Made by a program: the position numbers and the translations under genes. DNA of 64,000 nt from Heptranchias perlo. Lineage: Eukaryota. Under the pieces are notes generated by a model, which made no database searches, had not been told where the DNA came from, and was given only the letters and a program-made list of their open reading frames with translations. Positions 13,168-60,387 of the stretch are shown here, in pieces. Numbering within the stretch: the first letter of the stretch is position 1; each line of letters opens with the position of its first letter. The stretch spans positions 37,882,001-37,946,000 of the forward strand of contig NC_090353.1 of the NCBI RefSeq assembly GCF_035084215.1. Direction: 5' to 3'.

Positions 13168-14349
13168 AAGAAGGTTTTGGGGGCATCAGGAGAGCAAGAA
13201 GTAGGAGTTCTGCGGACGTTCCTCGATGTCCCACTTAACTTCGGCGATCAGGAAAGCAGTGTGGAAATTAGCCGAACGTGCTGGGCAGTGAGTGAGTGGT
13301 GTCAGTGGGGGGGCCAGTAATGGTGGGAGGACCCTGCACTGCAGTCTCATGGTGACATGAGCCCAGTTATTAGTGGGGGAGCACGAAGGATGTTTATATG
13401 ACTCTCCTCTACCTGTTATTTTAGTGCCAGTCATTTAAATCAGCAGGTCAGCACCTGCCTTAAAATAGTAGCTGAAGGAGGATTAGAGTCGTCCTCTAAC
13501 GAGCCACAGTGGTTCCCAGTCTAGAGTTCCCAGGACGAACCAGGCTGTAGTGATGTAAGGAACTGCAACAGTACCTGTCCTGTTAAATTAAACCCACTTC
13601 AATCCAAGATATTTCTCCCAGTCACATCAATCTCCTCAATAAATCGTCAGACAGCTCTGGGAGTTTCTGTTTTTTCCACCAATTAATTCTCCTCGGAGAG
13701 TTATGGAGCACCTTCTCTGATATTGGCCAGGATTCATTACTCCGAACGTCAGCCTTCACAGCAGGATATTCAACAGTGGAAGGCATCACAGATGACCTCA
13801 CTCTTGTCCTCACTCACTGCCCACATATGGATTTTCCAGCAGGTTTACATAGAATGACATAGAATGTACAGCACAGAAACAGGCCATTTGGCCCAACAGG
13901 TCTATGCCGGTGTTTATGCTCCACACGAGCCTCCTCCCTCCCTACTTCATCTCACCCTATCAAGAGTCACTGGATAGTCAGCGATAAGGAGCAGGAACCC
14001 TGGCTGATGTCCCCCCTCCTTGCCCGAGACTTCTGTTGCCCTTTCTGGTACCTGTATCACTCTTGAACTAACTCGGCGCAGGTTGAAGTTTGAAGCCTGG
14101 GTGCTGCAGCTCAGCTAATCCCTGAATAACTCAGTCAGCCATTGGTGGCGCCCGCCTGGCATTGTCTATTGTAATGTTATTCTGTAATAGTTTACATGAA
14201 CCAACTGCTGCTTCCTCGGATGACGGAGCCGGTGTGGGGCGATATTTACGTCTGCGTGCAGGGGTTTCCTGCAGCCTTGTTATAACACCCTTAAATATAC
14301 AGGGGAGAGCTGCAGCTGTGGAAACACATCGTTTAGAGGCAGACAACAA

Positions 14350-14428
14350 ATGGACGTCTCACTGCTTTCTCAGACGCTCAATGTCTTCACTGCTTTGCTC
14401 TCATCTGCTGGAGCCTGCTGCTCACAAG
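14350..14428 (+). CDS. PAR4-like receptor copy 1, exon 1 (signal peptide)
   Basis: MDVSLLSQTLNVFTALLSSAGACCSQ+G, phase-1 donor AAG|gttaga. Homologous to exon 1 of copies 2 and 3 (MD...LLS.A..C.S); TATA-like ttaaatata about 55 nt upstream. Confidence 0.72.
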
Positions 14429-14859
14429 GTTAGATTCATCCCCTTACTTCACTCTTTCCTCCATCACCCATAAGCTATTCTACGTTTAGGGAGCTAAACT
14501 AAAGTCGGGGTCTTTAGAGAGCACATTGAGTGTGTTGCCTGGATAATTCTTCCTGATCCATTAAGTTTTAGATCAAACAGCAAAATGTTGATGGTCCCAG
14601 CCTGGGTGAAATGAAGCTTCTGATTCCGAATCTTTCTAAGATTCCGAGGCTCTGTGAGATGTTCTAAACAAATTGGCCAACTGCAAATATATTTCCTATC
14701 TTCAAAAATAAAGATAGAACTAACCCAGGGAACCAGTGAGCCCAATGTCAGAGGTAGGAAAAATACCAAAATCTTTGCTAAACGATCAGATAACAAAACA
14801 TCTTGAGACAGAGAATGTAATGAAAAAATAGTCAGCATGGATTTCTAAAAGGACGACAT

Positions 14860-15060
14860 AACTAAACAACCTTAATGAATTCTTTGAAGAAATGACAGAG
14901 AATAGACCAGGGCAGTGTAGTTGATGTGATATACATAGACTTTCAGAAAGCCTTCGATAAGATGCCACATAAAGACTCATCACAAAGGTCAGGGCCATTG
15001 GGGTCAGGGGCCAGGAAGCAGAATGGATTGAAAGATGGCGATAGAACAGGAAACAGAAGC
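14860..15060 (+). mobile_element. Degenerate CR1 RT fragment
   Basis: Remnants of TNL.EFFE and DFQKAFDK motifs. Confidence 0.6.
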
Positions 15061-15102
15061 AAGGAGTGAGATCGTTTACCAGGGTGTGGGTCAGGACTGA
15101 GA

Positions 15103-15420
15103 CTGGTTAATGTGTGTGATTGATTGATTGGTTAATATGTGTGATTGGTTGATTGGTTAATGTGTGCGATTGATTGATTGGTTAATATGTGCGATTGATT
15201 GATTGGTTAATGTGTGTGATTGATTGATTGGTTAATGTGTGGAATTGATTGGTTAATGTGTGTGTGATTGATTGACTGATTGGTTGATTAGTTAATGTGT
15301 GTGGTCAATGTGTGGGATTGATTGGTTAATGTGTGGGATTGGTTAACGTGATTGGTTAATGTGTGGGATTGATTGATTGGTTAATGTATGTGATTGGTTA
15401 ACATGACTGATTGATGTGTG
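15103..15420. repeat. Degenerate (gattggttaatgtgtgt)-type minisatellite
   Basis: Repeated gatt/ggttaatgtgtg units. Confidence 0.85.
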
Positions 15421-16233
15421 CTTTCCTGAGGTCACATCAACAAGAAGCAAAAGAATCAGCAGGAAAGTACTTGTACTACAAGAGAATAAAATTCCTGAAA
15501 GAAATGGTTTGGGGGAGGCTTTTGGTGATGTGTACTCATTTTTAAGGGTTAGCCTGAGTGTTATCAGTGTTTTGTAGATTTCCTAAGTTTCAATTGAAAC
15601 TTGGAAGCAGATCCTGGTCGGTGAGCAGATATTCAGTGAAAGGCAACGTTTCAATGTGGATTGGCAGAAGGACAGGTTCATGTTGGGCAAATGAACAGTG
15701 AGACGTGACAGGTTGAACTGATTTAACCACAGCACTGGGAGAAGGTGACACTGGATAGGAGGAGGAGACATTGATATATTAAGATTTCACACATGGGTCA
15801 AGGGCTGAGGCCATTTGCTCTTTGTCGCTGCTGTTCAGTTGTGTCGGGAGGTGGGAGATCCTGTTACTTGAGTCCGCTGTCTTTGACGGTCTCTGCTGCC
15901 TCTCCTTAACTAGTCTTTCAACAGAGAAAAGTGAACACGTGGACAAATAAATAGTGTGAGTATTGGTGAGGACAGTTTGATGTTCATTAAGGCACTGGGT
16001 GCTATTTTACGCACAAGAAATGTCTATCATGATGAAAGGAATATTATTGGAGACACAAATTGTAATAATGTATTTGAGATCCTACCGCTGGATGGAATTG
16101 AGCACAGTGCAGTTAATTAAAGGCGTGTGTTGTACACTAAAATAAACTGACCAATCCTCAAGTCCCAGGGTATAGTTTACACCAACAGGAAGACGAGCTC
16201 CAAAATGACAAAAAAAATCTTTTTTTATTTCAG

Positions 16234-17318
16234 AATCTTCGCTATTTGAATTTCAAGATGTTATTAATCCAATCACAAACTCAACTAATAATTCTGCAAT
16301 AATTCAAAATGTGCTGAGTGAATCACCAAGATATTATCTGACCAGTTCTGTCACCACGGTGATGATTCCTGCCATTTCCAGCATCATCTTTGTCATTGGT
16401 CTCCCAGCCAATGGGCTGGCTCTTTTGGTTCTGGTCACCAAGGTCCAGAGAATGCCTTCCACCATCTTCCTGATGAACCTGGCGACTGCTGATCTTCTCC
16501 TGATCCTAGTGCTGCCGTTCAAAATCCACTATCACTTCCTGGGCAATGACTGGCTCTTTGGTGAGGGTCTGTGTCGGACAATGACCGCCTTCTTCTATGG
16601 GAACATGTACTGCTCCATCCTGCTCCTCACCTTCATCAGCATCGACAGATACTTCGCTCTGGTCCATCCATTCTTCTCCAAACGCTTCAGGGACAATACG
16701 TTTGCCGTTGGTGCCTGTTCGGTGATTTGGGCGCTTGTTGTACTCTCCGTGTTACCGTTTCTCCTCCAGAGGCAGACGTACCCAATCCAGGATCTAAACA
16801 TCACCACCTGCCATGATGCCTTGCCAGGAAACCTGCAGTCTGGTTATTTCTTCTATTACTTTGTGTGTTTGGTTGTGTTTGAGTTTCTCATTCCCTCTCT
16901 TGTTACTATATTCTGTTACGTGTCTATAATCAAAACATTGATGATTAATGAAGGTAAATATGCCAAAGCTGTAAGGACCATAATTCTAGTGCTGATAGTG
17001 TATGTGGTGTGTTTCACCCCCAGTAATATAATCCTCCTCATCCACCACTCTGAGTATCACCTCACACATTCCAGTGACCTGTATTTCTATTATATGATCT
17101 GCCTGGCACTCAGCACCTTCAATAACTGCATCGACCCTTTCATCTACTACTACATCTCCGAGGAGTTCAGGGACAAAGTGAGAAGTTTGATCTGGTTTTG
17201 CAAAGAAACAAAAGATGAAGATTCAAGAAAAACAGCCCAGAAACTCCTTCTGGCCAACATCACATCAGGATCTAGACCAAAAGCACCAGTAGGAGATCTT
17301 GAACGAGGGCAGCTGTAG
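16234..17318 (+). CDS. Protease-activated receptor 4-like GPCR copy 1, exon 2 (7TM); spliced 387 aa
   Basis: Acceptor tttatttcag; in-frame stop at 16206 excludes an upstream extension. Motifs PANGLAL..PST..LMNLATADLLL, YGNMYCSILLL, DRY, TTCHDALP, DPFIYYYISEEFRDKVR; the last two best match PAR4/F2RL3. Confidence 0.93.
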
Positions 17319-18447
17319 GTCCATAAGGAGACAGACCATTAGCATCACTTCTTGCAACATTAAACCCGATACTGGCTGTAACTCCTGGTGCATTCAGCAA
17401 ATATTGGAAATGAAGAACAAACCTTTTAATGAAGGACTTCACCACACACTAAGCTGGTGGAACTTAAGTGAACGCTACTTTGCGTCTTGTGTCAGGCAGA
17501 CTGTTCCCTACTCCCCTCCCATGATTACTGGTCCTCTGTAATATACGTAGCTGCTGCTCATCATCATCATTCAGATGTTGTAACAAAATTGCTGATGAAA
17601 TCATGTCACCAATTCGCTCCCATTTCTCTATCCACCAATAGAGCGCCTCTCTTTGAGACACCCAATATGGTCAAACTTTCCTCATTCCTTTGATTTTTTT
17701 TCTTACCAACTCGTTGCTGTGAAGAGAGGACAGCAAATGCCCCAATAAATCACCATATCACCTCGAACCCTACAGGTCATCAACCAGGATTCAACTGGCC
17801 AGGTGGTAGTTGGACGTTTCTCACTCACTGTCAAACTGGAGGGGGAGAGCAGGCACCTCAAAACTCCACTGATGGGGCGAGCGTTACAAACCACATCCCA
17901 CATCATTGGATCATGGCCGCTGACTAAACACTCTGGGGGCTGGCGCACTTTGCCTGCTGTTCTTTAAAATGGCTGGAATTAATCGCTGAGTCCGTACACG
18001 CTAAATAACACTGAAGGTGCTAACTCTGTGTGGAACATACCCACTCAAATACACTCACTCTACCTGTTACTACAGATGACCTATATTCAGATTCTAATCA
18101 TTTACAGCATGGAGATAAAAGCCAGTACATCTGGCATAGCTGGTTGTTTCAGTGAGTAACTAAGCCACACCGATCAGTAAGACCCTGATTTGATCTCCAG
18201 TCTGTGCTGAGTTGGCCGATAACAGGGATGGTGGCAGTAGGGACGGTACAATTGATCGCAGTGCCCAGGATTCCCAGTCCCGGTCACTATCCATTAATCC
18301 CACTAAAAAGTGTGGGTGCGGACGGATATTAGGCAGGGACAGAATCCATCTTAACTGCGACGCTTCTATGGTTAAATAGTCTGCTGATACTCACCACCTG
18401 GGCTCACACATGAAGAATGGTCACTTGGAGGAGATACAAGATTAGCT

Positions 18448-19412
18448 GAGAGTCAGTGCCTTCAGGAGCGATTGGGACCTGTACCCTAGTGAGAGTCAGT
18501 GCCTTCAGGAGTGATTGGGACCTGTACTCCAATGAGAGTCAGTGCCTTCAGGAGCAATTGGGACCTGTACACCAGTGAGAGTCAGCGCCTTCAGGAGCGA
18601 TTGGGACCTGTACTCCAATGAGAGTCAGTGCCTTCAGGAGCAATTGGGACCTGTACACCAGTGAGAGTCAGCACCTTCAGGAGCAATAGGGACCTGTACT
18701 CCAATGAGAGTCAGCGCCTTCAGGAGCAATAGGGACCTGTACTCCAATGAGAGTCAGCGCCTTCAGGAGCGATTGGGACCTGTACCCCAATGAGAGTCAG
18801 CACCTTCAGGAGCAATAGGGACCTGTACTCCAATGAGAGTCAGCGCCTTCAGGAGCGATTGGGACCTGTACCCCAATGAGAGTCAGCACCTTCAGGAGCA
18901 ATAGGGACCTGTACTCCAATGAGAGTCAGCGCCTTCAGGAGCGATTGGGACCTGTACCCCAATGAGAGTCAGCACCTTCAGGAGCAATTGGGACCTGTAC
19001 ACCAGTGAGAGTCAGCACCTTCAGGAGCAATAGGGACCTGTACCCCAATGAGAGTCAGCACCTTCAGGAGCAATTGGGACCTGTACACCAGTGAGAGTCA
19101 GTGCCTTCAGGAGCAATTGGGACCTGTACCCCAATGAGAGTCAGCACCTTCAGGAGCAATAGGGACCTGTACTCCAATGAGAGTCAGCGCCTTCAGGAGC
19201 GATTGGGACCTGTACCCCAATGAGAGTCAGCACCTTCAGGAGCAATAGGGACCTGTACTCCAATGAGAGTCAGCGCCTTCAGGAGCGATTGGGACCTGTA
19301 CCCCAATGAGAGTCAGCACCTTCAGGAGCAATAGGGACCTGTACTCCAATGAGAGTCAGCGCCTTCAGGAGCGATTGGGACCTGTACCCCAATGAGAGTC
19401 AGTGCCTTCAGG
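18448..19412. repeat. 43-bp minisatellite, about 22 copies
   Basis: Unit gagagtcagcgccttcaggagcgattgggacctgtaccccaat. Confidence 0.95.
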
Positions 19413-20529
19413 AGAGGGAAAATTAGCTGAATAAAGAAATGGGGGGAAAACTGAATTTACGTGGGAGATTAGCATGTGGTGTTAAGACAATCCCTATGGG
19501 CCCTGGCTCTGTCTGCAATTCTATGTTGGACTGTGTGGATCAGTCACCAACTGAGCCAGCAAATGGGTTGAAATTGCTGTCTTTGCAGAATAAATTTTTC
19601 AAGTACAACCTTCTGTCTGGATTTTTTTATTGAAATGCATTGCAATCTTTGAAAAGTCAGTTTTAGTTTCAGCGAGTTAGGTCCTGACCAGTTAAATGAC
19701 TGTTATTAACCTTCTCTGCACCTTAAACACACACTATTGGGACCAGTTGGGCAAGAAAGGCCATTGGGCAGATCAGGCAGAGCTGGATAAACACACAATG
19801 GGTCAGACATCCATATCACAGCTCAATAAAAACACAAATAGGGAGTTTCAAAGGCCAGTCTTTCCCCGAGGTCCACAGAAGGCAGTGTAACTGCAGACGA
19901 GCAGCTGCGTCCACCCCATGTCTGCCCTCCTTATCCCAGACAATGTTATTGGATTGGAATATTTTTAGTGATGTCAATGGAAATGAAACAGTGGCGAGAT
20001 GTACAATGAGGACTGATCACCTGTTTTACACAATTGCCCAAAGTCAAGGTTACCCCCGCTCTCTCCCCAGGGCAAACTTTTGGAGAGGATTTTTTTTAAT
20101 GTTTGAGAAAAGTTATAATCAACACATAAATTCACACAAAGGCACCAAATGGGAGGGGTCTGTAACCAATGCTCTGTCCTCTAACTGATTCTGGTATTTG
20201 GGATGATGCTCTCAAGGCAATAGTTTTGCCCTGAAATGAATTAAAATGAGGGCAGCCTAAACCAATCTCCAGATTCCCGAATATTTGTTGTGTTACTTTT
20301 CCTGATATGACTTTGCATCAGGAGCAGATTTGGGAACTCTGCCTGTTGATTATCTGCGATGGACATTTCCTGCAATTTTAATGTAGACAGCGTAATGTTT
20401 ACACCAGTTTTCCTGCTGTCTGGCTGTAACATTCTGGAGGATAAAGGGCAGACACACAGCAGACCTGAAGGTTAGTCACAGCCAGACCATAGCTCACAGC
20501 AACAGGACAGCCTGTGCATCTCGGCAGCT

Positions 20530-20611
20530 ATGGACTTCCCTGAACTCTCCCGAAGACTCTTTCTCTTTACTCTGTTACTCTCACCTGCAGCAGTCTGCCA
20601 GTCGAAAGAAG
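20530..20611 (+). CDS. PAR4-like receptor copy 2, exon 1 (signal peptide)
   Basis: MDFPELSRRLFLFTLLLSPAAVCQSKE+G; 82 nt; donor AAG|gtaaga; phase 1 joins exon 2 in frame. Confidence 0.85.
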
Positions 20612-21351
20612 GTAAGACTTTTATTGGTTTACTTCACTCCTTCTCTCCTGTAATATATTTTAGATTTATCGGGGAGTCTGTGCGCCTGCAACTCAGAAAA
20701 CCATTTTGAGAACACACTGGAGCCAGTTCAGGAGCTCTCCCTGTTACATCCCTGAAACAGTCTGGGTTGAAGCATATTTTTGATTCCAAATAATTTTAAG
20801 ATGGTGAAGCTGTGTGAGATTTTATCAATAAACGGGTGATTTCCCCAGTTCCTCCGTCTTGTTGCAATTATATCTCTGCTTCTCAGGAGTCGCTCATCTC
20901 TGGTGCCTTTGGCCGACATCATGCGCTCATTTCAGCTTTGTAACATCAGTTTAGCAGCTGGCAGGTTGCAGTTTCCAGCTGCAAGGTAAGACTGTCCCGG
21001 GGTGAGGTGGAGCTGAAGCAGATGTTACAACTGCTGTCGACAGAATTCTTACTCTGCAATTGTTAAATGTTTCATTAGAGTGACACGCACTCGATGGGTT
21101 GATGCTGTCGGTGATGGATTACAGCAAACTGCTTTTTATCCTGCCCCAGTGACATGTCCTACAGCAACGTTATTCCCCTTTAAGAGCATTCGAGCAAGTT
21201 CTGTTCAGAACGTATTTACAGCACACAAAGGCTAGCATTTCCTCCTCACCAGCAGGGTCCTTTTACGATCAGTTTGGTCAAATATAGATGGGTAGATTTT
21301 AAGTTGCTGCCCGGGATCAGACACCCGTTAACAAAACCGCCTGATTTTCAT

Positions 21352-21675
21352 TTCATAGGAACAGGAGGAGGCCATTCAGCCCCTCGGGCTTGTTCCGCCA
21401 TTCAATTAGATCACGGCTGATCTGCAACTCAGCTCCATTTTGCCCACCTTTGCTCCGTATCCCTCGATACCGACAAAAATCTATCGATCTCAGTCTTGAA
21501 AGCTCCAATTGATCCCCAGCATCCACAGCCTTTAGGGGGAGAGTTCCAGATTTCCACTCTCCTTTGTGTGAGGAAGTGCTTCCTGATTTCACCCCTGAAC
21601 AGCCTGGCTCTAATTTTAAGGTTCTGCCCCCTTGTCCTGGACTCCCCCCACCAGACGAAATAGTTTCTCTCTCTC
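21352..21675 (-). mobile_element. CR1 3' end
   Basis: CR1 3' UTR (gaatggcctcctcctgttcctatg); similar copy at 22915-23120. Confidence 0.7.
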
Positions 21676-21809
21676 TCTATTAAAAAGGGAAGTGGGTGAA
21701 TATTTGAAAGGACAGGGGAATGGGATGAAGTGGATGGATAGCGGACACGGGGAAGATGGGAATGGCTTCCTTCTGTGCTGTAAAATTTTAATTTAATGTT
21801 AACTGATGC

Positions 21810-22430
21810 AAGTTAATAAGGCCATAAAAATGCAAACCAAGCACTGGGGTTCATTTCTAGAGGGATAGAATTGAAAAGCAGAGAAGTTATGTTAAACATA
21901 TACAGAACCTTGGTTAGACCACACTTGGAGAACTGTGCGCAGTTCTGGTCTCCATATTATAAAAGGATATAGAGGCACTGGAGAAGGTGCAAAAAAGATT
22001 CACAAGGATGATACCAGAACTGAGAGGTTATAACTATCAGGAAAGATTGAACAGGCTGGGGCTCTTTTCTCTAGAAAAGACAAGGCTGAGAGGTGACCTG
22101 ATAGAGGTCTTTAAAATTATGAAAGGGTTTGATAGGATAGACGTAGAGATAATGTTTCACTTGTGGGGAGGCCATAAATATAAGATAGTCACTAATAAAT
22201 CCAAAAGAGTGGTGAGAATGTGGAACTCGCTCCCACAAGGAGTGGTTGAGGTGAATAGTGGAGATGGATTTAAGGGGAAGCTCGATAAACACATGAGGGA
22301 GAAAGGAATAGAAGGATATGCTGATAGGGTGAGATGAAGTAGGGAGGGAGGAGGCTCGTGTGGAGCATAAACACCGGGATAGACCAGGGGGGCCGAATGG
22401 CCTGTTTCTGTGCTGTAAATTCTTTGTAAT
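21810..22430 (+). mobile_element. CR1 3' fragment
   Basis: VQKRFTRMIP...RLRGDLIEVFKI ORF 21987-22337. Confidence 0.85.
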
Positions 22431-22601
22431 TTAAGGTAACTTTTGGGTCGATACAAATCTATCCCAAAAATGGATAATAAGAAGAAGTTGATAGATTCTT
22501 GTGGCTGATTTTGTATTCTGATTGGCTCTCGATCATTTTTACAAGCTTGATCAAGGACACTGTGAGTTGGATGTGGTAATAAATCCTTGCGCTTGAGGGG
22601 C

Positions 22602-22812
22602 TTTTTTTTTTATTCGTTCACGGGATGTGGGCGTCGCTGGCGAGGCCGGCATTTATTGCCCATCCCTAATTGCCCTTGAGAAGGTGGTGGTGAGCCGCCT
22701 TCTTGAACCGCTGCAGTCCGTGTGGTGACGGTTCTCCCACAGTGCTGTTAGGAAGGGAGTTCCAGGATTTTGACCCAGCGACAATGAAGGAACGGCGATA
22801 TATTTCCAAGTC
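22602..22812 (-). mobile_element. LINE family A 3' end
   Basis: Reverse complement of the family A tail, with polyT. Confidence 0.85.
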
Positions 22813-23185
22813 TGAATGGCCTGCTCCTGTTCCTCTGTAACTAAAGATGAAAAAATGCTTTTATTTGAAATTATCAGCTTATCCTCTATTCTCAGCACAT
22901 AATGGGTTTTTTTCATAGGAACAGGAGGAGGCCATTCAGCCCCTCCTGCCTGTTCCAACATTCAATTAGATCATGGTTCATCTGTACCTCAACTCCATTT
23001 CCCCGCCTTTGCTCCGTATCCCCTGATCCCCTCACCCAACAAAAATCTATCGATCTCAGTCTTGAAAACTCCAATTGACCCCCAGCACCCACAGTCTTTG
23101 GGGAGAGAGTTCCAGATTTCTAGTGCTTTACAACTTTAACTAGGAACTAAAACCCTAACATTAAAAAATCTTTCTTTTTGTGCAG

Positions 23186-24231
23186 ATTCCCCAAAAGCCA
23201 ATGGGAGAAGTTTCCGATTTTCTGTTGCTGGTCCCAACAATGTGCTGAATGAATCAGCATTGAATCACCTGACCAGTTCTGTTACCACGGTGATGATTCC
23301 TGCCATTTCCAGCATCATCTTGATTATTGGTCTCCCAGCCAATGGGCTGGCTCTTTTGGTTCTGGTCACCAAGGTCCAGAGAATGCCTTCCACCATCTTC
23401 CTGATGAACCTGGCGACTGCTGATCTTCTCCTGATCCTAGTGCTGCCGTTCAAAATCCACTATCACTTCCTGGGCAATGACTGGCTCTTTGGTGAGGGTC
23501 TGTGTCGGACAATGACCGCCTTCTTCTACGGGAACATGTACTGCTCCATCCTGCTCCTCACCTTCATCAGCATCGACAGATACTTCGCTCTGGTCCATCC
23601 ATTCTTCTCCAAACGCTTCAGGGACAATACGTTTGCCGTTGGTGCCTGTTCGGTGATTTGGGCGCTTGTTGTACTCTCCGTGTTACCGTTTCTCCTCCAG
23701 AGGCAGACGTACCCAATCCAGGATCTAAACATCACCACCTGCCATGATGCCTTGCCAGGAAAAGTGGACTCTGGTTATTTCTTCTATTACTTTGTGTGTT
23801 TGGTTGTGTTTGAGTTTCTCATTCCCTCTCTTGTTACTATATTCTGTTACGTGTCTATAATCAGGGCATTAATGGTTAGTGAACAGCAATTCGGGCAAGC
23901 TGTAAAGACCATGGTGTTAGTGCTGATAGTGTATGTGGTGTGTTTCACGCCCAGTAATATAATCCTCCTCATCCACCACTCTGAGCATCACCTCACACAT
24001 TCCAGTGACCTGTATTTCTATTATATGATCTGCCTGGCACTCAGCACCTTCAATAACTGCATCGACCCTTTCATCTACTACTACATCTCCGAGGAGTTCA
24101 GGGACAAAGTGAGAAGCTTGATTATTTGCAAAGAAACAAAAGATAAAGATTCAAGAAAAACGGCCCTTCAGCTGGTTCAGAGCAGCTCCTCCTCAGGGTC
24201 TGACACGAAGATATCAGTGAGGAGTATTTGA
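23186..24231 (+). CDS. PAR4-like GPCR copy 2, exon 2; spliced 375 aa; predicted cleavage ANGR/SFRFSV
   Basis: Acceptor tttgtgcag; reads DSPKANGRSFRFSVAGPNNVLNES... in frame with ORF 23242-24231; full 7TM motifs. Confidence 0.93.
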
Positions 24232-25951
24232 ATTCAGTACTTTGGTTACATGAAGGGGCTTAACCATTGAATTCGATCAACACAACTAAAGCCATGTGAT
24301 GGGCAGTAGTTTGGCAGCTTATTCAGGGACTCTGGAAATGCAGAAAGGCTTGTGGCTGAAACCGATCACTTGCTCAATGCATGAAATATACAACAGGAAA
24401 TCCTACTTGTCTTATTTGCATGTTTGTTTCATTTTGTAAGTGAACTTAACTCAGATATCAACTAATGCCAGGCTGCAGCTGGTGATTAACAATTGTCAGG
24501 TCAAACTCAGAAACAGTGCGCTTTCTGCAGACTAGAAATTAGATTAAAAATGAATTGAAAGCAATGTAGGTGTTGATCAGAGTGGGACGGGGGGGGGCGC
24601 CAATGAGTGATGACACAAATGGGGTAAAATGAGTCTTTAACGGGGGCAGGAAATGGGCCGTAGTGAAAGCTGTGCTCGTTTTACACGTGCCTGACATGGT
24701 CAAAAAAAGTGGTGGAAAAAGTTGAACTTTGCATGTTGAGGCTGTGGCGATTGATGAGGGGGGGCAGGGGGGGGCAGTGTGAGTGAACCACTCGCTGGAG
24801 CAGGTCAGGTACGTGTGTGTGTGAGGTCTATCGTCAGACTGGCACTATTCCACATTTACTGTGGGTGATTGTACTAAACTCCTGAGTGCACTTTTTAATG
24901 CAGCAGTTAATTCATTTTAAAGAGAGGAATGTTGCCTGATCCATGAAGGCATTTTACAGAAGTTACCCGCTTCTGAAAATCAGTCTATTTTCTGCATAGT
25001 GAAAGAATGAGAGATGTTAAAAGTGAATGAATATCACTCTGTTGTGTGACTCATGCCCAATTAACTTGTTTAGCTATTTGCCTCCAGGTTTGTGAGGCAT
25101 AAGCCTCTCGGTGTGGTTTGTGGATATGCCATCTTAGAGTGCTGTATGATCACTAGCGACCATGCCTGAAGGACCTGCTTCAGTGGGCAGGAGTCTCTTT
25201 TGTGGTTGGCTCATTGCTTTCAGAGGTGGTGAAGGGTTAGTTGGTGCCATAGAACAGCGACTGACATGACTGTGCTGCTGAACACATGGCTCTGCTGGAG
25301 GGCATCTCCCCACTGATCTGGTTGCAATCAACAGTTGCAGGGCACCAGGAATTTCCTCGGGACTTCTCCAGCTCTCTGCTGTAACTTTGGCACAAACTCT
25401 GCGTGCACATGTTAAACCGGGTTTCCGCAAACTTCTGCCAAGTTACAGCAGAAAGCGGGAGAAGTGCCCAGAAAGCTCCCGGTGTGGGCACTACGAGGAG
25501 TTAGAATCCCTGTAACATTCTGCGAGTAGGTTAAAGTTTGCTGTTATGCTTGATACTCCAAATAGCTTTTGTTTTCAGTATCTCAGCCCAATCTTGTTCA
25601 CTCCCTGTGCCCTGGAGCCTGCCCCTTGGATAGATTGGTTGCAAGGCCAGGAATTGACCAAAGAAGCATTTTCACCATATTTCAGCTATTGGTTCTATTG
25701 TGTGATCTCGATTTCAGAATGCAGAGGGGTGACGTTACTTGAGACCCTGATTTAGGATTTAACTACCAAACAAATTTATTAAACAGTGAAAGAATAAGGG
25801 GCCAAAATTCCAGGGTCACTGTTTCACTGCCAGAAGAGTGGCAGAGTGGGACTGTCAGATGCCAATCACGACCCAGAGTGTGGGGATGGGATCATTGGAG
25901 TGTTCAGGGCGGGGCCCGGGTGTTAGGCCCATTCCTGCCACTCTGACATTA

Positions 25952-26190
25952 GTAAACAATTTTACAACACCAAGTTATAGTCCAGCAATTTTATTTTAAA
26001 TTCACAAGCTTTCGGAGGCTTCCTCCTTCGTCAGGTGAACGATGTGAAAATCGTTCACATCGTTCACCTGACGAAGGAGGAAGCCTCCGAAAGCTTGTGA
26101 ATTTAAAATAAAATTGCTGGACTATAACTTGGTGTTGTAAAATTGTTTACAATTGTCAACCCCAGTCCATCACCGGCATCTCCACATCAT
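25952..26190 (+). mobile_element. Penelope-like element remnant with inverted pseudo-LTR and 13-bp TSD
   Basis: Perfect 97-bp arms 25952-26048 and 26054-26150 with a 5-nt spacer; direct repeat cactctgacatta at 25939-25951 and 26191-26203. Confidence 0.75.
26063..26101 (+). ncRNA. Minimal type I hammerhead ribozyme motif (mirror copy on - strand at 26001-26039)
   Basis: TTCAC-CTGACGA-A-GGAGG-aag-CCTCC-GAAA-GC-TT-GTGAA: CUGAnGA and GAAA core, 5-bp helices I and II, palindromic AGCT in place of helix III. Confidence 0.65.
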
Positions 26191-26912
26191 CACTCTGACA
26201 TTAAGTAAGGAAGCTAAAGTTATTGATAAGGGATAAGTCAATAAAATCCTCCTTATATGGAGTAGTATTTTAATTTTTATATAATGATGTAATGCAGAAT
26301 TGTGAGGATTGTCACATAGAAGAAGTGAGAGGGACGTATAAAGACCGGCTGTTTGTAATAAGTATTTGGATTGGTTAAAGGTCCAAGATACCGAGCTTAG
26401 AATTATGATAAGTTTCAATAACTAACCTACCATCACTAGGTGTAAGTATTACTGTTTAAGTGTGCATTAAGTACTAGTGGATGTACAGTATCCTTAATAA
26501 ATCGGTGACACCTGATTTTCAATGTATAAGAACCTTATTGATTTGAGGAGTAAATTATAAATAAGAGCCCTCCACTACCAATGGCTACATGGTGCTATCA
26601 ACGAGGCTTTCGGGAAGCCAGTCCCTTGGTACAAGTAACGGGACTCCCTCCACTGATCCCCTCCGGCCCGTGGGGAAAGTGACACCGCAGCAATTCAAGG
26701 CTGCAGTGAGCTGATTGACCCATTGACCTGCAGATTAGCTGATCGGGCAAATGTCACCAGTAATGGTTTGAAATAAGTCAGTGACATAGACATTCAGCAA
26801 AGGGTGACCTTAATCACAACAGCCAGCACTGACCCTTCGCTGGAGGTCGACTGAAGGTCAGGCACCAGTAAACAGCACAACTATGTCACTTCCTTTTAAT
26901 CGCTGCACCATT

Positions 26913-28523
26913 GAACATAAGGACATAAGAAATATGAGAAGGAGCAGGACATCCGGCCCCTCGAGCCTGCTCCGCCATTCAATAAGATCATGGCTGATCT
27001 TCTACCTCAACTCCATTTTCCTGCACTATCCCCACATCCCTTGATGCCTTTAATATCTAGAAATCTATCAATCTCTGTTTTGAATGTACTCAATGACTGA
27101 GCCTCCACAGCCCTCTGGGGTAGAGAATTCCAAAGATTCACCACCCTCTGAATGAAGAAATTTCTCCTCATCTCAGTCCTAAATGGCCGACCCCTTATTC
27201 TGAGACTGTGACCCCTGGGTCTAGACTCCCCAGCCAGGGGAAACAGCCTCCTTGCATCTACCCTGTCGAGCCCTGTAAGAATTTTGTATGTTTCAATGAG
27301 ATCACCTCTCATTCTTCTAAACAAGAGAATACAGGCCTAGTCTACTCAATCTCTCCTCATACGACAATCCCGCCATCCCAGGAATCAGTCTGGTGAACCT
27401 TCATTGCACTCCCTCTATGGCAAGTATATCCTTTGTTAGGTAAGGAGACCAAAATTGTACACAATACTCCAGGTGCGGTCTCACCAAGGCCCTATATAAT
27501 TGCAGTAAGACATCTTTACTCCTGTACTCAAATCCTCTTGTAATAAAAGCCAACATACCATTTGCCTCCCTAATTGCTTGCTGCACCTGCATGTTTGCTT
27601 TCAGTGACTCATGTACAAGGTCACCCAGGTCCCTTTGAACATCAACATTTCCCAATCTCTCACCATTTAAAAAATACTCTGCATTTCTGTTTTTCCCACC
27701 AAAGTGGATAACTTCACATTTTTCCACATTATATTCCATCTGCCATCTTCTTACCCACTCATTTAGCCTGTCTGTATCCTCTTGAAGCCTCTTTGCATCC
27801 TCCTCACAACTCAACATTCCCACCTAGTTTTGTGTCATCAGCAAACTTGGAAATATTACATTTGGTTCCCTCATCCAAGTCATTGATATAGATTGTGAAT
27901 AGCTGGGGCCCAAGCACTGATCCCTGCGATACCCCACTAGTCACAGTCTGCCAACCTGAAAAAGACCCGTTTATTCCTACTCTCTGTTTTCGGTCTGTTA
28001 ACCAATTCTCAATCCATGCCAGTGTATTACCCCATCCACCACCCTAAACATTCACTCCTTTCACCACCGGCGCACCATGGCTGCAGTGTGCACCATCCAC
28101 AGGATGCACTGCAGCAACTCGCCAAGGCTTCTTCGACAGCACCTCCCAAACCCACGACCTCTACCACCTAGAAGGACAAGAGCAGCAGGCACATGGGAAC
28201 AACACCACCTGCACGTTCCCCTCCAAGTCACACACCATCCCGACTTGGAAATATATCACCGTTCCTTCATCGTCGCTGGGTCAAAATCCTGGAACTCCCT
28301 TCCTAACAGCACTGTGGGAGAACCGTCACCACACGGACTGCAGCGGTTCAAGAAGGCGGCTCACCACCACCTTCTCAAGGGCAATTAGGGATGGGCAATA
28401 AATGCCGGCCCCGCCAGCGACGCCCACATCCCAAAGAACGAATATATTAAAAAAATTACCCCCAATTCCGTGTGTTCTAATTTTGTTCACCAACCTCCTG
28501 TGTGGGACCTTATCAAAAGCCTT
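26913..28523 (-). mobile_element. CR1 3' half, interrupted by a LINE family A tail (28033-28455, + strand)
   Basis: ORFs 27007-27324 and 27401-27823; CR1 resumes after the polyA with a short duplication (ttaccc). Confidence 0.88.
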
Positions 28524-28529
28524 TGATGG

Positions 28530-28772
28530 ACCTGCCTTCAGCTGCCTCGGGCCCTAAGCTCTGGAATTCCCTCCCTAAACCTCTCCCCCTCTCTCTCCTC
28601 CTTTAAGATGCTCCTTAAAACCCACCTCTGTGACCAAGCTTTTGGTCACCTGTCCTAATATCTCCTTATGCGGCTCGGTGTCAAATTTTGTTTGATAATC
28701 GCTCCTGTGAAGCACCTTGGGACGTTTTACTACGTTAAAGGCGCTATATAAATGCAAGTTGTTGCTGTTGTT
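28530..28772 (+). mobile_element. L2 3' end
   Basis: Matches 12930-13165. Confidence 0.8.
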
Positions 28773-29077
28773 GCAGCTGTCTCTCCCAAACACTACATCG
28801 AGAGATCAATCCGACATCTTCGATTACACTGTCAGAAAAACTCGGAATCCTGCAACCAGAACACCAGTAGAGTTGCCAACTCTGGTTGGAGGCATTCCTG
28901 GAGGTTTGATCACGTGACATTCTGACCACATGACATCTGATCAGGTGAAATCTGATCACATAACTTGTAAAATTTTATTGCATTTATCTGATAACGAGAT
29001 TGGGTCTCTGGCTGAGTATTCACTGCAGCAGCTGCTGAGCGACACGTAACAAGAATCAGAGGGCGTCCCACGAGTAA

Positions 29078-29602
29078 GGGAAGAGGGAAAACCGAGGGGG
29101 GAATGAGGGGAAACTGAGGGAGGGGGAAGAGGGGAAACCGAGGGAGAGGGAAACTGAGGGGGGAAGAGGGAAAACTGAGGGAGGGGAAGAGAGGAAACCG
29201 AGGGGGGAAAGAGGGGAAACCGAGGGAGCGGGAAGAGGGGAAACTGAAGGGGGAAGAGGGGAAACCGAGGGCAGGGGAAGAGGGGAAACCGAGGGAGGGG
29301 GAAGAGGGGAAACTGAAGGGGGAAAGAGGGGAAACCGAGGGTGGGGGAAGAGGGGAAGCTGAAGGGGGAAGAGGGGAAACCGAGGGCAGGGGAAGAGGGG
29401 AAACCGAGGGGGGGAAAGAGGGGAAACCGAGGGTGGGGGAAGAGGGGAAACTGAAGGGGGAAAGAGGGGAAACTGAGAGAGGGGGAAGAGGAGAAACCGA
29501 GGGGGGGTAATCTGAGGGTGGGGGAGAGGGAAACCGAGGGAGGGGGAAGAGGGGAAACTGAGGGAGGGTAATCTGAGGGTGGGGAAGAGGGGAAACCGAG
29601 GG
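29078..29602. repeat. G/A-rich minisatellite (gaggggaaaccgaggg...)
   Basis: Variable 20-24 bp purine-rich units. Confidence 0.85.
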
Positions 29603-29825
29603 CCTGACTCCCTCTCCCCGATTGCCGAGACTCCCGACTCTCCAGCCTCCTCCCGACTGCACTCTACGCAGTTACCACTTTGCCGGGACAGTGGGAAATT
29701 TAAATTGCTGATTTCCTGGGCTTGGGGGGAGGAATCTCTGATTCCAGGAAACTCCCGGTCATTCTGGGAGGTTTGGGAACTCTGAGCACCAGTCACCATA
29801 ATCCGATTTTTCCTGCGCCCACTCA

Positions 29826-30088
29826 GAATCATAGAATCATAGAAAGGTTACAGCACGGAAGGAGGCCATTCGACCCATCGAGTCCGTGCCGGCTCTATGC
29901 ACGAGCAATCCAGCTAGTCCCACCCCCCCGCCCTATCCCCGTAGTCCTGCAGATGTTTTCCTTTCAAGTACTTATCCAGTTCCCTTTTGAAGGCCATGAT
30001 TGAATCTGCCTCCACCACCCCCTCGGGCAGTGCATTCCAGATCCTAACCACTCGCTGGGTAAAAAAGTTTTCCCTCATGTCACCTTTG
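29826..30088 (-). mobile_element. CR1 3' end
   Basis: (agaatcat)n tail and CR1 3' sequence. Confidence 0.75.
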
Positions 30089-30735
30089 CCTTGCGGCCCA
30101 TTCTTTGGGCGACATTATATTGAACAGACTAACAGGGTTCTCTCTCACCACCCAGGGGCTCCACGGATAATGTACTGTCTGTACTGAGCTAAACAGACCA
30201 GGAAATTCTCAGCAATCTCCTGACCGTTAACTTTCATGATACGCTCAAGTCCCGGGTTGCATCGTAAACCCACAAACTGACTCAGAGAGGAGTGCTACCA
30301 ACTGAGACAAGTGATCACTTGGACTCCTTGCCTGTTGTAGTTTAGTTTGACAATATGCTGTAGCACTCGTTTTATTCTTTGTCGTGTGACTGTTGCTTTT
30401 CTGTTTGTAGCAAAAATAAACACAGTGTAAAGTATTTTTTAAAAAGTCAACGGGAAGAATCCCGAGTTTTGTGAGGTAATTTTCCCTCCTCTGCTAGTTC
30501 TGGTCAGCACCAGCGGATAACGCTGTGGTTTCCTGATGTTGCTGCGAGTTGTTTGATAAAGTGCAGGATCAACATCTGTACATGACGAGCTCCTCATCCA
30601 AATGCTCCGGGTTTCCTGCAGCTTCATTGTAACCTCCTAAAATAAAAAGGAGAAAGAGACTGATAAAAAAAACTCACATCAGTTAATCCAGAGCCAGGCT
30701 GTCGCCCAGAGGGCAAACGGTGCAGATCGGCAACT

Positions 30736-30817
30736 ATGGACCTGTCCCGGCTGACCTGTGCACCCACTCTCCCACTCCTGTTACTCTCATGTGCAATGCT
30801 CTGTTACTCCCAGGAAG
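30736..30817 (+). CDS. PAR4-like receptor copy 3, exon 1 (signal peptide)
   Basis: MDLSRLTCAPTLPLLLLSCAMLCYSQE+G; 82 nt; donor AAG|gtaagacttt shared with copy 2; 5' context tcggcaRctATGgac shared with copy 2. Confidence 0.85.
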
Positions 30818-31086
30818 GTAAGACTTTGTGCATCACCCTTTCTTCTCAAAGTGTGTCTAGTCTGGCTGGAGCTGCCTCTGCGTCTCAAAATATTTTGAGC
30901 ATGTGAATTATTTTTTTTGTACCTTCCAGCTGAGATTGGTTGGCAGAAATCCATAAAAGCTGCCTGTGAGCCAGACATTGGTCAGAATGGGAGAGCCTCA
31001 AAACATGCACCCACACATTCCTGCTGCACCTCAACAGTGCTCTACCTGAACAGCATCGAAACCACTGGAGTGCTTAATGATACATA

Positions 31087-31995
31087 ATAGAGGGAGCTTT
31101 ACTCTGTATCTAACCCTGTACCTGCCCTGGGAGTGTTTGATGGGACAGTGTGGAGGGAGCTTTACTCTGTATCTAACCCTGTACCTGCCCTGGGAGTGTT
31201 TGATGGGACAGTGTAGAGGGAGCTTTACTCTGTATCTAACCCTGTACCTGCCCTGGGAGTGTTTGATGGGACAGTGTAGAGGGAGCTTTACTCTGTATCT
31301 AACCCGTGCTGTACCTGCCCTGGGAGTGTTTGATGGGACAGTGTAGAGGGAGCTTTACTCTGTATCTAACCCGTGCTGTACCTGCCCTGGGAGAGTTTGA
31401 TGAGACAGTGTAGAGGGAGCTTTACTCTGTATCTAACCCTGTACCTGCCCTGGGAGTGTTTGATGGGACAGTGTAGAGGGAGCTTTACTCTGTATCTAAC
31501 CCGTGCTGTACCTGCCCTGGGAGTGTTTGATGGGACAATGTAGAGGGAGCTTTACTCTGTATCTAACCCTGTAACTGCCCTGGGAGTGTTTGATGGGACA
31601 GTGTAGAGGGAGCTTTACTCTGTATATAACCCGTGCTGTACCTGCCCTGGGAGCGTTTGATGGGACAGTGTAGAGGGAGCTTTACTCTGTATCTAACCCG
31701 TGCTGTACCTGCCCTGGGAGCGTTTGATGGGACAGTGTAGAGGGAGCTTTACTCTGTATCTAACCTGTGCTATACCTGCCCTGGGAGTGTTTGATGGGAC
31801 AATGTAGAGGGAGCTTTACTCTGTATCTAACCTGTGCTATACCTGCCCTGGGAGTGTTTGATGGGACAATGTCGAGGGAGCTTTCCTCTGTATCTAACCC
31901 GTGCTGTACCTGCCCTGGGAGTGTTTGGTGGGACAGTGTGGAGGGAGCTTTACTCTGTATCTAACCCATGCTGTACCTGCCCTGGGAGTGTTTGA
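31087..31995. repeat. 63/67-bp minisatellite, about 14 copies, in copy 3 intron
   Basis: Unit gggagctttactctgtatctaaccc(gtgc)tgtacctgccctgggagtgtttgatgggacagtgtaga. Confidence 0.95.
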
Positions 31996-32877
31996 TTCTG
32001 GCACTGGACAAATCTTCCATTCTCAGTTAAGATGAGATATTGCCCATCATTCGGGTATGTTTAGAATGTTTGACTGTATTGGGGTGTTTAGATATTGTAC
32101 ATTCCCAGTATTTGCTGGACAATCCGATGGTTTGGGGCAGTCGAGAGCTGAAAATCGCCCCCAGTGTCTTGCACTAATTCAATATCTTTTCCTTGCTTTT
32201 ATTCTCAGCCTCTCAGTATAAAAACCCAGAATCCCATTTCTATTTTTATGACCTTTTCCCCTTGATTCCCACCTTCGAAGTTCTGTTGAGTTTTACCAGG
32301 TGGGATACGCTTCTTTCACTGTTCTTTTCCCCAAAGTTTCCTACTTCACATCGCTCCGCAGTGAACTGTATCTGACCGATCCGCCCACTCCACTAAACCA
32401 GTCCTTGTTCTCCTGCAACCTCCTGCTTTCTTCCTCCCGGTTTGAAAGTCCACCCCAGTTTGGTATCATCAGTAACTTCAGTAGCAATCCTCCTGTGCCT
32501 GCGTCCTAATCATTTATGTGAATGGGAAACAAAGGAGCTAAAAGCACAGACACAATGGGCTGAATGGCCTCCTTCTGTGCTGTAAGATTCTATGATTCTG
32601 GATCCCTGGGACACACCACAACCCACAGTCTGCCATTCCAAAAACACCCATTTGGCCCCACATTTTATTTTCCATTCCCCTCACTTTTCCTGTATCCATG
32701 CAGCTGTCTCACTTTTCGAACTGTTGACAGACAATAAAATAACCTGATGGAAACAGTAAGTATAACAAAGATCTAAAGACAGGACTGGAGCAGAAAATAG
32801 GCACTGAAGGAATTTCAAAATATTAAAAACTATTATTGCACTGTGATTATTAACATCCAGTTTCCTCTTGTCTGTAG

Positions 32878-33944
32878 GAGGTTCAGGAAATGAAGCAAAT
32901 GGAAGAAGTCTATTCATCAATATTGTTACTTCAGCAAAGCACTCAAACATTTCTATGAATGTGTTAGATAAATCAGCCAAGCATCACCTGACCAGCACTG
33001 TCACCACAGTCATGACCCCTGCCTTTTACATCATCATCTTTGTCATTGGTCTCCCAGCCAATGGGCTGGCTCTTTTGGTTCTGGTCACCAAGGTCCAGAG
33101 AATGCCTTCCACCATCTTCCTGATGAACCTGGCGACTGCTGATCTTCTCCTGATCCTAGTGCTGCCGTTCAAAATCCACTATCACTTCCTGGGCAATGAC
33201 TGGCTCTTTGGTGAGGGTCTGTGTCGGACAATGACCGCCTTCTTCTACGGGAACATGTACTGCTCCATCCTGCTCCTCACCTTCATCAGCATCGACAGAT
33301 ACTTCGCTCTGGTCCATCCATTCTTCTCCAAACGCTTCAGGGACAATATGTTTGCCGTTGGTGCCTGTTCGGTGATTTGGGCGCTTGTTGTACTCTCCGT
33401 GTTACCGTTTCTCCTCCAGAGGCAGACGTACCCAATCCAGGATCTAAACATCACCACCTGCCATGATGCCTTGCCAGGAAACCTGCAGTCTGGTTATTTC
33501 TTCTATTACTTTGTGTGTTTGGTTGTGTTTGAGTTTCTCATTCCCTCTCTTGTTACTATATTCTGTTACGTGTCTATAATCAAAACATTGATGATTAATG
33601 AAGGTAAATATGCCAAAGCTGTAAGGACCATAATTCTAGTGCTGATAGTGTATGTGGTGTGTTTCACCCCCAGTAATATAATCCTCCTCATCCACCACTC
33701 TGAGTATCACCTCACACATTCCAGTGACCTGTATTTCTATTATATGATCTGCCTGGCACTCAGCACCTTCAATAACTGCATCGACCCTTTCATCTTCTCC
33801 TACATCTCCGAGGAGTTCAGGGACAAAGTGAGAAGCATAACATCTGCTAGTAAAGATAAGAAGAGTGAAGACTCCAGAAAAACAATCCTTCAAACAGACA
33901 GCTCATCAGCATCGAGAACAATCGCATCACTAAAATGTATTTAA
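32878..33944 (+). CDS. PAR4-like GPCR copy 3, exon 2; spliced 382 aa; predicted cleavage ANGR/SLFINI
   Basis: Acceptor cttgtctgtag; GGSGNEANGRSLFINIV...; full 7TM; TM7 reads DPFIFSY. Confidence 0.93.
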
Positions 33945-41290: not shown

Positions 41291-41417
41291 CACGAATTGG
41301 CACTTCTTTTTTATTCATTCATGGGAAGTGGGCATCACCTGGCAAGGCCAACATTTATTGTCCATCCCTAATTGTCCTTGAGAATGTGGTGGTGAGCCGT
41401 CTTCTTGAACCACTGCA

Positions 41418-60305: not shown

Positions 60306-60387
60306 ATGAATTGTAATTTGCTGGTACCAGCTCTGCTACTGACACTTTCAACCTTCTGGTGTCGGGCAGCTACTCCAGACTATGACG
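60306..60387 (+). CDS. Probable exon 1 (signal peptide) of a fourth PAR-family gene; exon 2 lies beyond the window
   Basis: MNCNLLVPALLLTLSTFWCRAATPDYD+G; 82 coding nt, phase 1, donor G|gtgagactttt. Same length, phase and donor context as PAR copies 2 and 3. Confidence 0.6.

Follow-up and report, generated by a model that had tools for sequence, protein, structure and literature searches.

A 64-kb window of the genome of the sevengill shark Heptranchias perlo was analysed here over its whole length, and all coordinates are relative to its start. Self-comparison of the window revealed three long similar stretches (about 16.3-17.2, 23.2-24.2 and 33.0-33.9 kb) amid minisatellites and repeats of the long interspersed nuclear element (LINE) type, and each of them is the second exon of a two-exon gene from the family of proteinase-activated receptors (PARs; copies 1, 2 and 3; Table 1). 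A first-pass annotation, made from the sequence alone, had described three intact two-exon genes, which was confirmed by spliced frames that all lie on the + strand, have one phase-1 GT-AG intron each and contain no internal stops; the N-termini of the copies also read letter for letter as given there. Two coding exons, the first encoding the signal peptide, are the rule for PAR genes (PMC4771116), and this layout is present in the three copies. Pfam 7tm_1 matched 3/3 of them, and a crude scan detected a hydrophobic N-terminus in the copies. Two of the three genes carry automatic annotation: copies 2 and 3 are identical (100%, exon junction included) to the H. perlo RefSeq proteins P0001 and P0002, and copy 1 was absent from the 357 proteins retrieved (0/357).

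Three further members of the H. perlo array (P0032, P0044 and P0057) bring it to at least six genes. On the basis of their N-termini, 60 chondrichthyan proteins fell into six classes (A, 14; B, 13; C, 6; D, 12; E, 7; F, 7) and one unplaced chimaera protein. Copies 2, 3 and 1 belong to classes A, B and C, respectively, and class B includes a chimaera member. Thus, the array comprises at least six classes, is found across elasmobranchs and is chondrichthyan-wide. In addition, the 22-bp motif TTTCCTGC-N8-TRTAAC occurs three times in the window, once upstream of each gene and nowhere else (0.03 matches expected, which is optimistic because the pattern was built from its own three sites after the fact). 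On the opposite strand it includes a GGAA core of the ETS type, and sharing of the motif would be consistent with live, co-regulated promoters of copies 1-3.

Table 1. Features of the receptor array and its surroundings in the window (TM, transmembrane helix; 7TM, seven-transmembrane region; ECL and ICL, extracellular and intracellular loop; C-tail, C-terminal tail)
Feature	Positions	Strand	Remarks
Copy 1 (class C)	14350-14428 + 16234-17318	+	387 aa
Copy 2 (class A)	20530-20611 + 23186-24231	+	375 aa
Copy 3 (class B)	30736-30817 + 32878-33944	+	382 aa
Copy 1 exon 1, signal peptide	14350..14428	+	aligns with exon 1 of Mobula P0021
Copy 1 exon 2: ectodomain without canonical cleavage site, 7TM, C-tail with 7 Ser/Thr	16234..17318	+	
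Copy 2 exon 1, signal peptide	20530..20611	+	P0001
Copy 2 exon 2	23186..24231	+	RefSeq name proteinase-activated receptor 3-like
Copy 3 exon 1, signal peptide	30736..30817	+	P0002
Copy 3 exon 2	32878..33944	+	RefSeq name proteinase-activated receptor 2-like
Converted core, copy 1 (mid-TM1 to helix 8)	16395..17185	+	
Converted core, copy 2, broken by two unconverted islands	23326..24116	+	
Converted core, copy 3, includes Tyr7.53Phe (codon 33795-33797)	33045..33835	+	
Copy 2-specific ECL2 patch, KVD vs NLQ	23763..23769	+	
Copy 2-specific ICL3/TM6-start island	23864..23917	+	5 class A diagnostic residues in common with rays
Copy 2 putative cleavage site and tether, ANGR/SFRFSV	23197..23226	+	Arg at this spacing in 14/14 class A proteins
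Copy 3 putative cleavage site and tether, ANGR/SLFINI	32895..32924	+	Gly-Arg at this spacing in 13/13 class B proteins
Copy 1 SLFEFQ, earlier proposed ligand	16239..16256	+	no Arg/Lys before; unconserved in rays
Copy 1 site homologous to class A scissile bond and tether, T41/NSTNNS	16275..16295	+	two N-glycosylation sequons
Upstream motif, copy 1, putative promoter element	14265..14286	+	
Upstream motif, copy 2	20409..20430	+	
Upstream motif, copy 3	30612..30633	+	
Fourth array member (class D, P0032), exon 1	60306..60387	+	27/27 residues identical, GT donor, phase 1; exon 2 beyond window
S100 gene, intact, 100 aa	939-1079 and 5154-5315	+	nearest PDB matches S100A1/S100Z; upstream of copy 1 by ~9 kb

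Old paralogues with converted cores

Near-identity of the copies from TM1 to TM7, as claimed in the first-pass annotation, held for most of a 791-bp core, but not for the first half of TM1, the ECL2 tip and the ICL3/TM6 start of copy 2, or the DPxxY motif of copy 3. Within the core, copies 1 and 3 differ at 4 bases, copies 1 and 2 at 27 and copies 2 and 3 at 29. The synonymous difference was 0.00-0.01 from TM1 to ECL2, and only 0-1 of 111-116 four-fold sites differed in the core, as against 9-13 of 27-30 outside it; the longest identical runs (233, 446 and 304 nt) exceeded the maxima of 5000 shuffles (108, 99 and 114 nt). The signal exons, ectodomains, C-tails, introns and flanks had been described as diverged, and indeed the coding ends are near saturation at synonymous sites (0.42-0.83), and introns and flanks have only repeats and two short relics in common. 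Homogenisation, which at the DNA level was analysed in H. perlo, reaches synonymous sites, and purifying selection alone is thereby ruled out as the cause of the shared core. The donor copy could not be identified from the 14 diagnostic sites. It should be noted that a relic of 79 bp (71% identical), located close to the 5' end of the introns in copies 1 and 2 (14598-14672 and 20758-20832), was not masked as a repeat in the self-comparison and might be a regulatory element.

Partition analyses were based on 68 of the 120 listed homologues (of 1191 matches). Rows omitted from the study were two Stegostoma cross-gene isoforms and one mammal-like representative. In the tree of the unconverted ends (the flank tree), copy 1 joined five ray proteins (100/97), classes A and C were sisters, and the six classes and tetrapod PAR4 each occupied one side of a branch, requiring 6 changes for 7 groups compared with 42.3 after shuffling. 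The flanks rejected a clade of the three H. perlo copies (approximately unbiased (AU) test, p=6.5e-5), and the C-tail alone, which had not been used in class naming, recovered class C (89/78). Since the ends group with separate orthologue classes of sharks and rays, the duplications are older than the split of these two groups, which dates back roughly 250-300 million years. Copies 1, 2 and 3 are thus members of classes C, A and B that were already present before that split.

The cores, on the other hand, grouped by species in sharks. In the core tree, classes A and B paired within Carcharodon (96/89), Scyliorhinus (100/99) and Stegostoma (100/96), and Hemiscyllium A paired with Chiloscyllium B in the bamboo sharks (100/100), whereas ray A, B and C proteins each held together by class; class A monophyly was rejected by the core (p=3e-113). 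In windows from TM2 to TM4, shark paralogues were 0.97-1.00 identical (6 pairs) and orthologues 0.64-0.94 (12 pairs). Sliding windows revealed that shark paralogues exceed orthologues in likeness from ICL1 to helix 8 and fall below them at both ends, and that rays have at most a slight paralogue excess in TM2-TM3. Paralogues that are closer than orthologues in one segment, with the reverse elsewhere, are the hallmark of mosaic concerted evolution (PMC2720389), which has been reported for CCR2/CCR5 (PMC8877049) and chicken FFAR2 (PMC4453067). With ends grouping by class and cores by species in four shark lineages, it follows that old paralogues were homogenised by repeated gene conversion: in sharks, recurrent conversion between neighbours overwrites the segment from mid-TM1 to helix 8, and the signal exon, ectodomain and distal C-tail escape it and retain class identity. 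The contrast of shared core and diverged ends seen in the first-pass annotation is real, and gene conversion supplies the mechanism that had not been offered. The domain-partitioned phylogeny proposed there as a check thus gave conflicting groupings for ends and cores, and kept the placement in the PAR family.

Two other explanations of this pattern were considered. In a young lineage-specific expansion, as first suggested, N-termini would have diversified quickly for different proteases around a fixed signalling core. Near-identical cores, together with differing tethers and linkers, fit such a history, and the chondrichthyan genes form a single clade in the full core tree (94/85), so that the array as a whole may be chondrichthyan-specific. 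However, the age of the three genes contradicts it, recent duplication being ruled out by the near-saturated ends and their grouping with ray orthologues; moreover, copies 2 and 3 have the same P4-P1' residues and differ in ICL3 and position 7.53, and copy 1 has no site at all (see below). We consider this expansion improbable. The second explanation, that assembly or polishing introduced a false likeness between paralogous cores, deserves mention since near-identical repeats are prone to such errors. Nevertheless, four independent shark assemblies repeat the pattern, each with its own species-specific core, the islands of copy 2 keep ancestral class A residues, and there is no sequence gap (N) within 14350-33944, which together rule out an artefact for all practical purposes.

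A few observations concern exchange outside the core. Copies 2 and 3 both encode ANGRS (window 23197-23211 and 32895-32909) with two synonymous differences between them, and Stegostoma A and B both have RGR at the cleavage site; the shared residues suggest either parallel change or an older micro-conversion at the site. Two Stegostoma RefSeq isoforms combine a class B signal exon with a class D body (P0042) and a class A signal exon with a class E body (P0098), reflecting cross-gene splicing or an annotation artefact. All four first exons in the window end in phase 1, so cross-gene joins would remain in frame.

Tethers, pockets and signalling output

The Arg/Ser tethers that had been proposed for copies 2 and 3 look real. 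In 14/14 class A proteins an Arg precedes the TM1 anchor by 20 residues (22 in one case) and in 13/13 class B proteins by 26-27, and P2' is hydrophobic in 27/27 proteins of the two classes. The residues that hold the tether in the pocket of PAR1/PAR2, which include Tyr 6.59, have been described (PMC12033368); ECL2 CHDxL, Y3.33, Y7.32 and Y7.35 are kept in 3/3 copies, and position 6.59 (His) is the exception. An alignment-based AlphaFold model of cleaved copy 3 (predicted local distance difference test (pLDDT) score 88.7) contained seven TM helices and helix 8, with the tether (residues 2-8, block mean 84) forming an ordered strand, and its top seven Foldseek matches were PAR1/PAR2, the best being tether-bound PAR1. 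A single-sequence model of copy 2 (pLDDT 39.6) was set aside. Taken together, the conserved sites and the model suggest that copies 2 and 3 are probably true PARs. By analogy with the family, cleavage by a trypsin-fold protease would follow Arg35 or Arg37 and expose SFRFSV or SLFINI as the new N-terminus, which would dock on the CHD-containing ECL2 and activate G proteins.

A different protease input for each copy, on the other hand, was not upheld for copies 2 and 3. Both have ANGR/S at P4-P1' and a single acidic residue within the 25 residues before TM1, which would imply overlapping trypsin-type specificity rather than distinct inputs; what differs is the ligand, linker length and loops. 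The suggested likeness of Gly-Arg/Ser to the PAR2 site stands as a resemblance of sequence only; P2 in the 14 copy 2 orthologues is Gly (6), Val (4), Pro (3) or Leu (1). Copies 2 and 3 give no hint of a thrombin-tuned site, for which class D, with an acidic DYD motif like that of tetrapod PAR4, would be the better candidate. In class E (P0044, P0055, P0069, P0077, P0078, P0098 and P0118), conservation of the R/[RK]FPI[ILV]Q site is strong and the CHD motif is altered, with His replaced in 7/7 proteins; tether and pocket of this class may have co-evolved.

Nor do the copies have one signalling core, as had been assumed: the ICL3 of copy 2 is distinct, and position 7.53 of copy 3 is Phe. The unconverted ICL3/TM6 island of copy 2 is 54 bp long, and ICL3 shapes Gq coupling in PAR1 (PMC11443083). 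However, the A-type loop has spread to class B in Carcharodon and the B/C-type loop to class A in Scyliorhinus, and such swaps in both directions indicate that the ICL3 difference is not essential in all sharks. The DPxxY motif of copy 3 contains two substitutions, including Phe for Tyr7.53, and the C-tails differ as first described, with 7, 13 and 14 Ser/Thr in copies 1, 2 and 3, respectively. It is plausible from these differences that signalling output differs between copies. For copies 2 and 3, overlapping proteases appear probable, with output that would differ via ICL3, position 7.53 and C-tail, and perhaps expression as well.

The only Arg or Lys in the ectodomain of copy 1 is the juxtamembrane Arg59, whose position holds K or R in 50/69 rows across the family. 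SLFEFQ, which had been taken as its tethered ligand, is ruled out by the missing basic P1, by its location farther out than the tether position and beyond the usual spacing, and by its lack of conservation in rays, which have acidic sequence instead. Alignment to the sister class A places the scissile bond and tether of copy 1 at Thr41 and NSTNNS. In two full-length ray orthologues the class A P1 position is Lys, followed by the polar GSVNNS or HSVNNS; the three other ray models are truncated. A cassette exon that would restore an Arg site was sought in copy 1, and neither of the two intron candidates was PAR-like. When residues 1-60 of its exon 2 were used as a query, only P0001 and P0003 matched, through TM1 (2 of 11 candidates). 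Judged by these proteins, class C has lost the canonical tether while keeping its reading frame, which is open in at least six species. Having no Arg/Lys scissile bond, copy 1 is a PAR by descent and not by cleavage feature, and classical self-activation would be impossible. Its ECL2, TM5, ICL3 and pocket are identical to those of copy 3, that is, it would have an intact PAR pocket. Possible roles include activation in trans, a non-canonical cut or a decoy function, and it would most likely serve as an accessory receptor that is activated in trans, forms dimers or is cut non-canonically. Trans-activation has been shown for an engineered tetherless PAR1 and from PAR1 to PAR2 (PMC3842752).

One reading, which we consider possible but doubtful, takes class C as a tetherless PAR of natural origin and ancient conservation that is trans-activated by its neighbours' tethers or by peptides freed by proteolysis, with continual conversion in sharks favoured by selection as a means of matching its pocket and dimer surface to theirs. 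If true, protease input and G-protein/arrestin output would lie on different genes of a combinatorial system, and in rays, which have little conversion, class C would instead have become a decoy or a receptor whose pocket is newly polar. Selection for a shared pocket or dimer surface, with the tethers of copies 2 and 3 activating copy 1 or with heterodimers, would explain both the identity of copies 1 and 3 in these parts and the recurrence of conversion in four shark lineages with similar limits; the precedent lies in tetherless PAR1, which can be activated in trans, and in the action of cleaved PAR1 on PAR2 (PMC3842752), the shared upstream motif hints at co-expression, and a like idea was put forward for CCR2/CCR5 (PMC2720389, PMC8877049). 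It has to be weighed against the fact that rays hold all three classes with far less homogenisation, that later work on CCR2/CCR5 found conversion not confined to dimer surfaces (PMC8877049), and that the limits are equally explained by where identity suffices for recombination. Selected conversion is therefore possible but doubtful.

Similarly doubtful is a self-activating copy 1 that senses a non-trypsin protease, either an acidic-site enzyme at [QE]-D-V or a cathepsin G-like enzyme that cuts before Arg59. D-V follows Q or E in 3/3 full-length class C proteins, although two of these three sequences are related. Arg59 aligns with human PAR4 Arg68, next to Ser67, where cathepsin G cleavage yields a functional biased ligand (PMC12927046; cut also in PMC10179473), and non-canonical tethers are common among PARs (PMC3842752); yet the basic juxtamembrane residue is family-wide and not specific to class C. 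Somewhat less likely still, class C might signal poorly and serve as a decoy or modulator, or it might be in slow decay, with conversion repair as the only reason that the H. perlo gene is intact. In 5/5 ray class C proteins K6.52, E7.40 and F7.53 are found, DPxxY is needed for PAR1 activation (PMC11443083), and no class C entry from another shark was found among the matches listed. In contrast, copy 1 of H. perlo carries the usual N6.52, A7.40 and Y7.53, and no damage is seen in its unconverted signal exon, splice sites and C-tail; that the frame is open in five ray species speaks for purifying selection. Class F (P0057, P0061, P0072, P0073, P0074, P0103 and P0109) lacks a signal peptide as annotated, has no Arg 10-45 residues before TM1 in 4/7 proteins and has an altered pocket (Q6.59, H7.32 and Tyr in ECL2); it may be a second tetherless class, or its models may be without exon 1.

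Placement in the PAR4 clade and known systems

The PAR-family membership and PAR4-like character given in the first-pass annotation were borne out by the homologue search, PDB match and 7TM tree. Among the 120 matches listed, the top 46 were cartilaginous-fish proteins or close kin, and no non-chondrichthyan match bears the name PAR1, PAR2 or PAR3. A 58-row 7TM tree was built with 31 of 150 representatives as outgroups, in which PAR1, PAR2 and P2RY8 rows were labelled by PDB searches and PAR3 rows by a K/TFRG motif only (PDB search revealed no close structure). The chondrichthyan clade was sister to bony-vertebrate PAR4 (joint support 93/89) and outside the PAR3-like clade (97/91 against 100/100), which was defined by tether motif and not by database names. 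PAR4 was also the top PDB match, narrowly (277 vs 272 bits). The PAR2 identity in the RefSeq label of copy 3 is rejected (AU p=0.006 for array and PAR2; ICL3 loop span of 34 vs 40 residues in PAR2), and the PAR3 membership in the label of copy 2 is not supported, as this copy lies outside the PAR3-like clade and has no Lys/TFRG-type site; sisterhood of array and PAR3 was not rejected (AU p=0.076). The short ICL3 of the array is common to PAR4 and PAR3 and aligns gap-free with human PAR4. Thus, the PAR4 clade is the best assignment of the array on the available sequences, short of proof.

It is rather unlikely that the array lies closer to PAR3, or that instead of being orthologous to F2RL3 it sits on a sister region that arose in the genome duplications of vertebrates. 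The sole neighbour gene found, when 150 of 254 candidate frames chosen outside the cluster were scanned, was the upstream S100 gene, a linkage reminiscent of the human one, in which S100Z adjoins F2RL1. A second PAR4-like lineage (the P0127 family) exists in birds, turtles, crocodilians, tuatara and salamanders, with no mammalian match among 97 listed, and RefSeq calls most array members PAR3-like. These points, together with the unrejected PAR3 sisterhood, favour such an origin; the best tree, the names of the listed matches and the PDB match all oppose it. The P0127 family resembles the array in its place in the PAR4-like clade, in a GR/VL-type tether similar to that of class B and in equally inconsistent RefSeq names (PAR2-, PAR3- or PAR4-like), but it branches outside the group of array and PAR4.

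On balance, we put a probability of roughly three in four on an ancient tandem PAR4-clade array of cartilaginous fishes that has undergone mosaic evolution by conversion and in which copy 1 is tetherless. Several results weigh against this reading. Class labels were assigned by eye from N-termini; class B support is weak in the smaller flank tree (37/38, compared with 94/93 in the other); class C monophyly is not rejected by the core (p=0.28); and array and PAR3 may yet be sisters. Position 6.59 is His in 3/3 copies and most of the array, where PAR1/PAR2 have the tether-contacting Tyr. Only 3/6 class C proteins are long enough at the N-terminus, two of them from the related rays with Lys at the class A P1 position, and no second shark class C protein was found in the homologue search, perhaps through loss or because it lies within 90% clusters.

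Compared with vertebrate PAR4 (F2RL3), the array has the same two-exon gene, CHD motif, gap-free short ICL3 and sister place in the 7TM tree. It differs in having at least six tandem genes instead of one, cores that exchange sequence, one copy without a site, and His 6.59. A thrombin-type Pro-Arg/Gly site with a GYPGQV-like tether is also absent from the three copies (ANGR/S in copies 2 and 3, no site in copy 1); only Pristiophorus class A (P0005) has NPR/GYPL, which is much like the start of the mammalian PAR4 tether (GYPG), by convergence or as a retained ancestral state. PAR1-PAR2 trans-activation and PAR3 as a cofactor of PAR4 are precedents for a partner-dependent PAR (PMC3842752, PMC10179473); however, mammalian PARs all have their own cleavage site and the tetherless PAR1 was engineered, whereas copy 1 is natural and has ray orthologues. 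Like CCR2/CCR5, TLR1/TLR6, EMR2/CD97 and chicken FFAR2, the array consists of receptors in tandem that are converted in some segments and have diverged at the ends facing the ligand, a pattern repeated across lineages (PMC2720389, PMC8877049, PMC4453067), but its paralogues are older than those mammalian pairs. In the array the receptor's agonist is itself part of the unconverted N-terminus, so that a single shared pocket has to accommodate different tethers.

Multi-copy PAR4-clade genes have been reported in coelacanth, Xenopus and birds, sharks being unmentioned in the text available from that study (Jin et al., PMC4771116). In the accessible portions of the open-access literature no chondrichthyan PAR array and no gene conversion among PARs is described, and the same is true, for the array, of the available parts of PMC3408399, PMC5072561 and bioRxiv 2024.05.23.595469. 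The array is thus apparently a variant not described before, although both the family and the process that shaped it are known; conversion being familiar from other receptor pairs, its occurrence here is less of a surprise. PAR biology rests on four single mammalian genes. In cartilaginous fishes there are at least six classes of the PAR4 clade, which databases misname PAR2-, PAR3- or PAR4-like. Nature has here made a swap experiment, in which an almost identical 7TM body is combined with varied tethers, loops and tails, and two questions become testable: to what extent signalling bias is set by the tether alone, and whether PAR-PAR trans-activation is a dedicated physiological design. The conserved tetherless class beside core-matched partners is the most interesting lead. 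It should also be noted that core-based trees and RNA-seq read mapping will misassign array genes.

Finally, a weak Peptidase_M1 match at 58784-59143 (E=0.002, below cut-off) was taken as chance. Young LINE-type retrotransposon copies, ~95% identical and with reverse transcriptase and endonuclease domains, are located at 41269-43790, 2452-3619 and 52714-54244, and many GC-rich minisatellites lie between copy 3 and the fourth gene.

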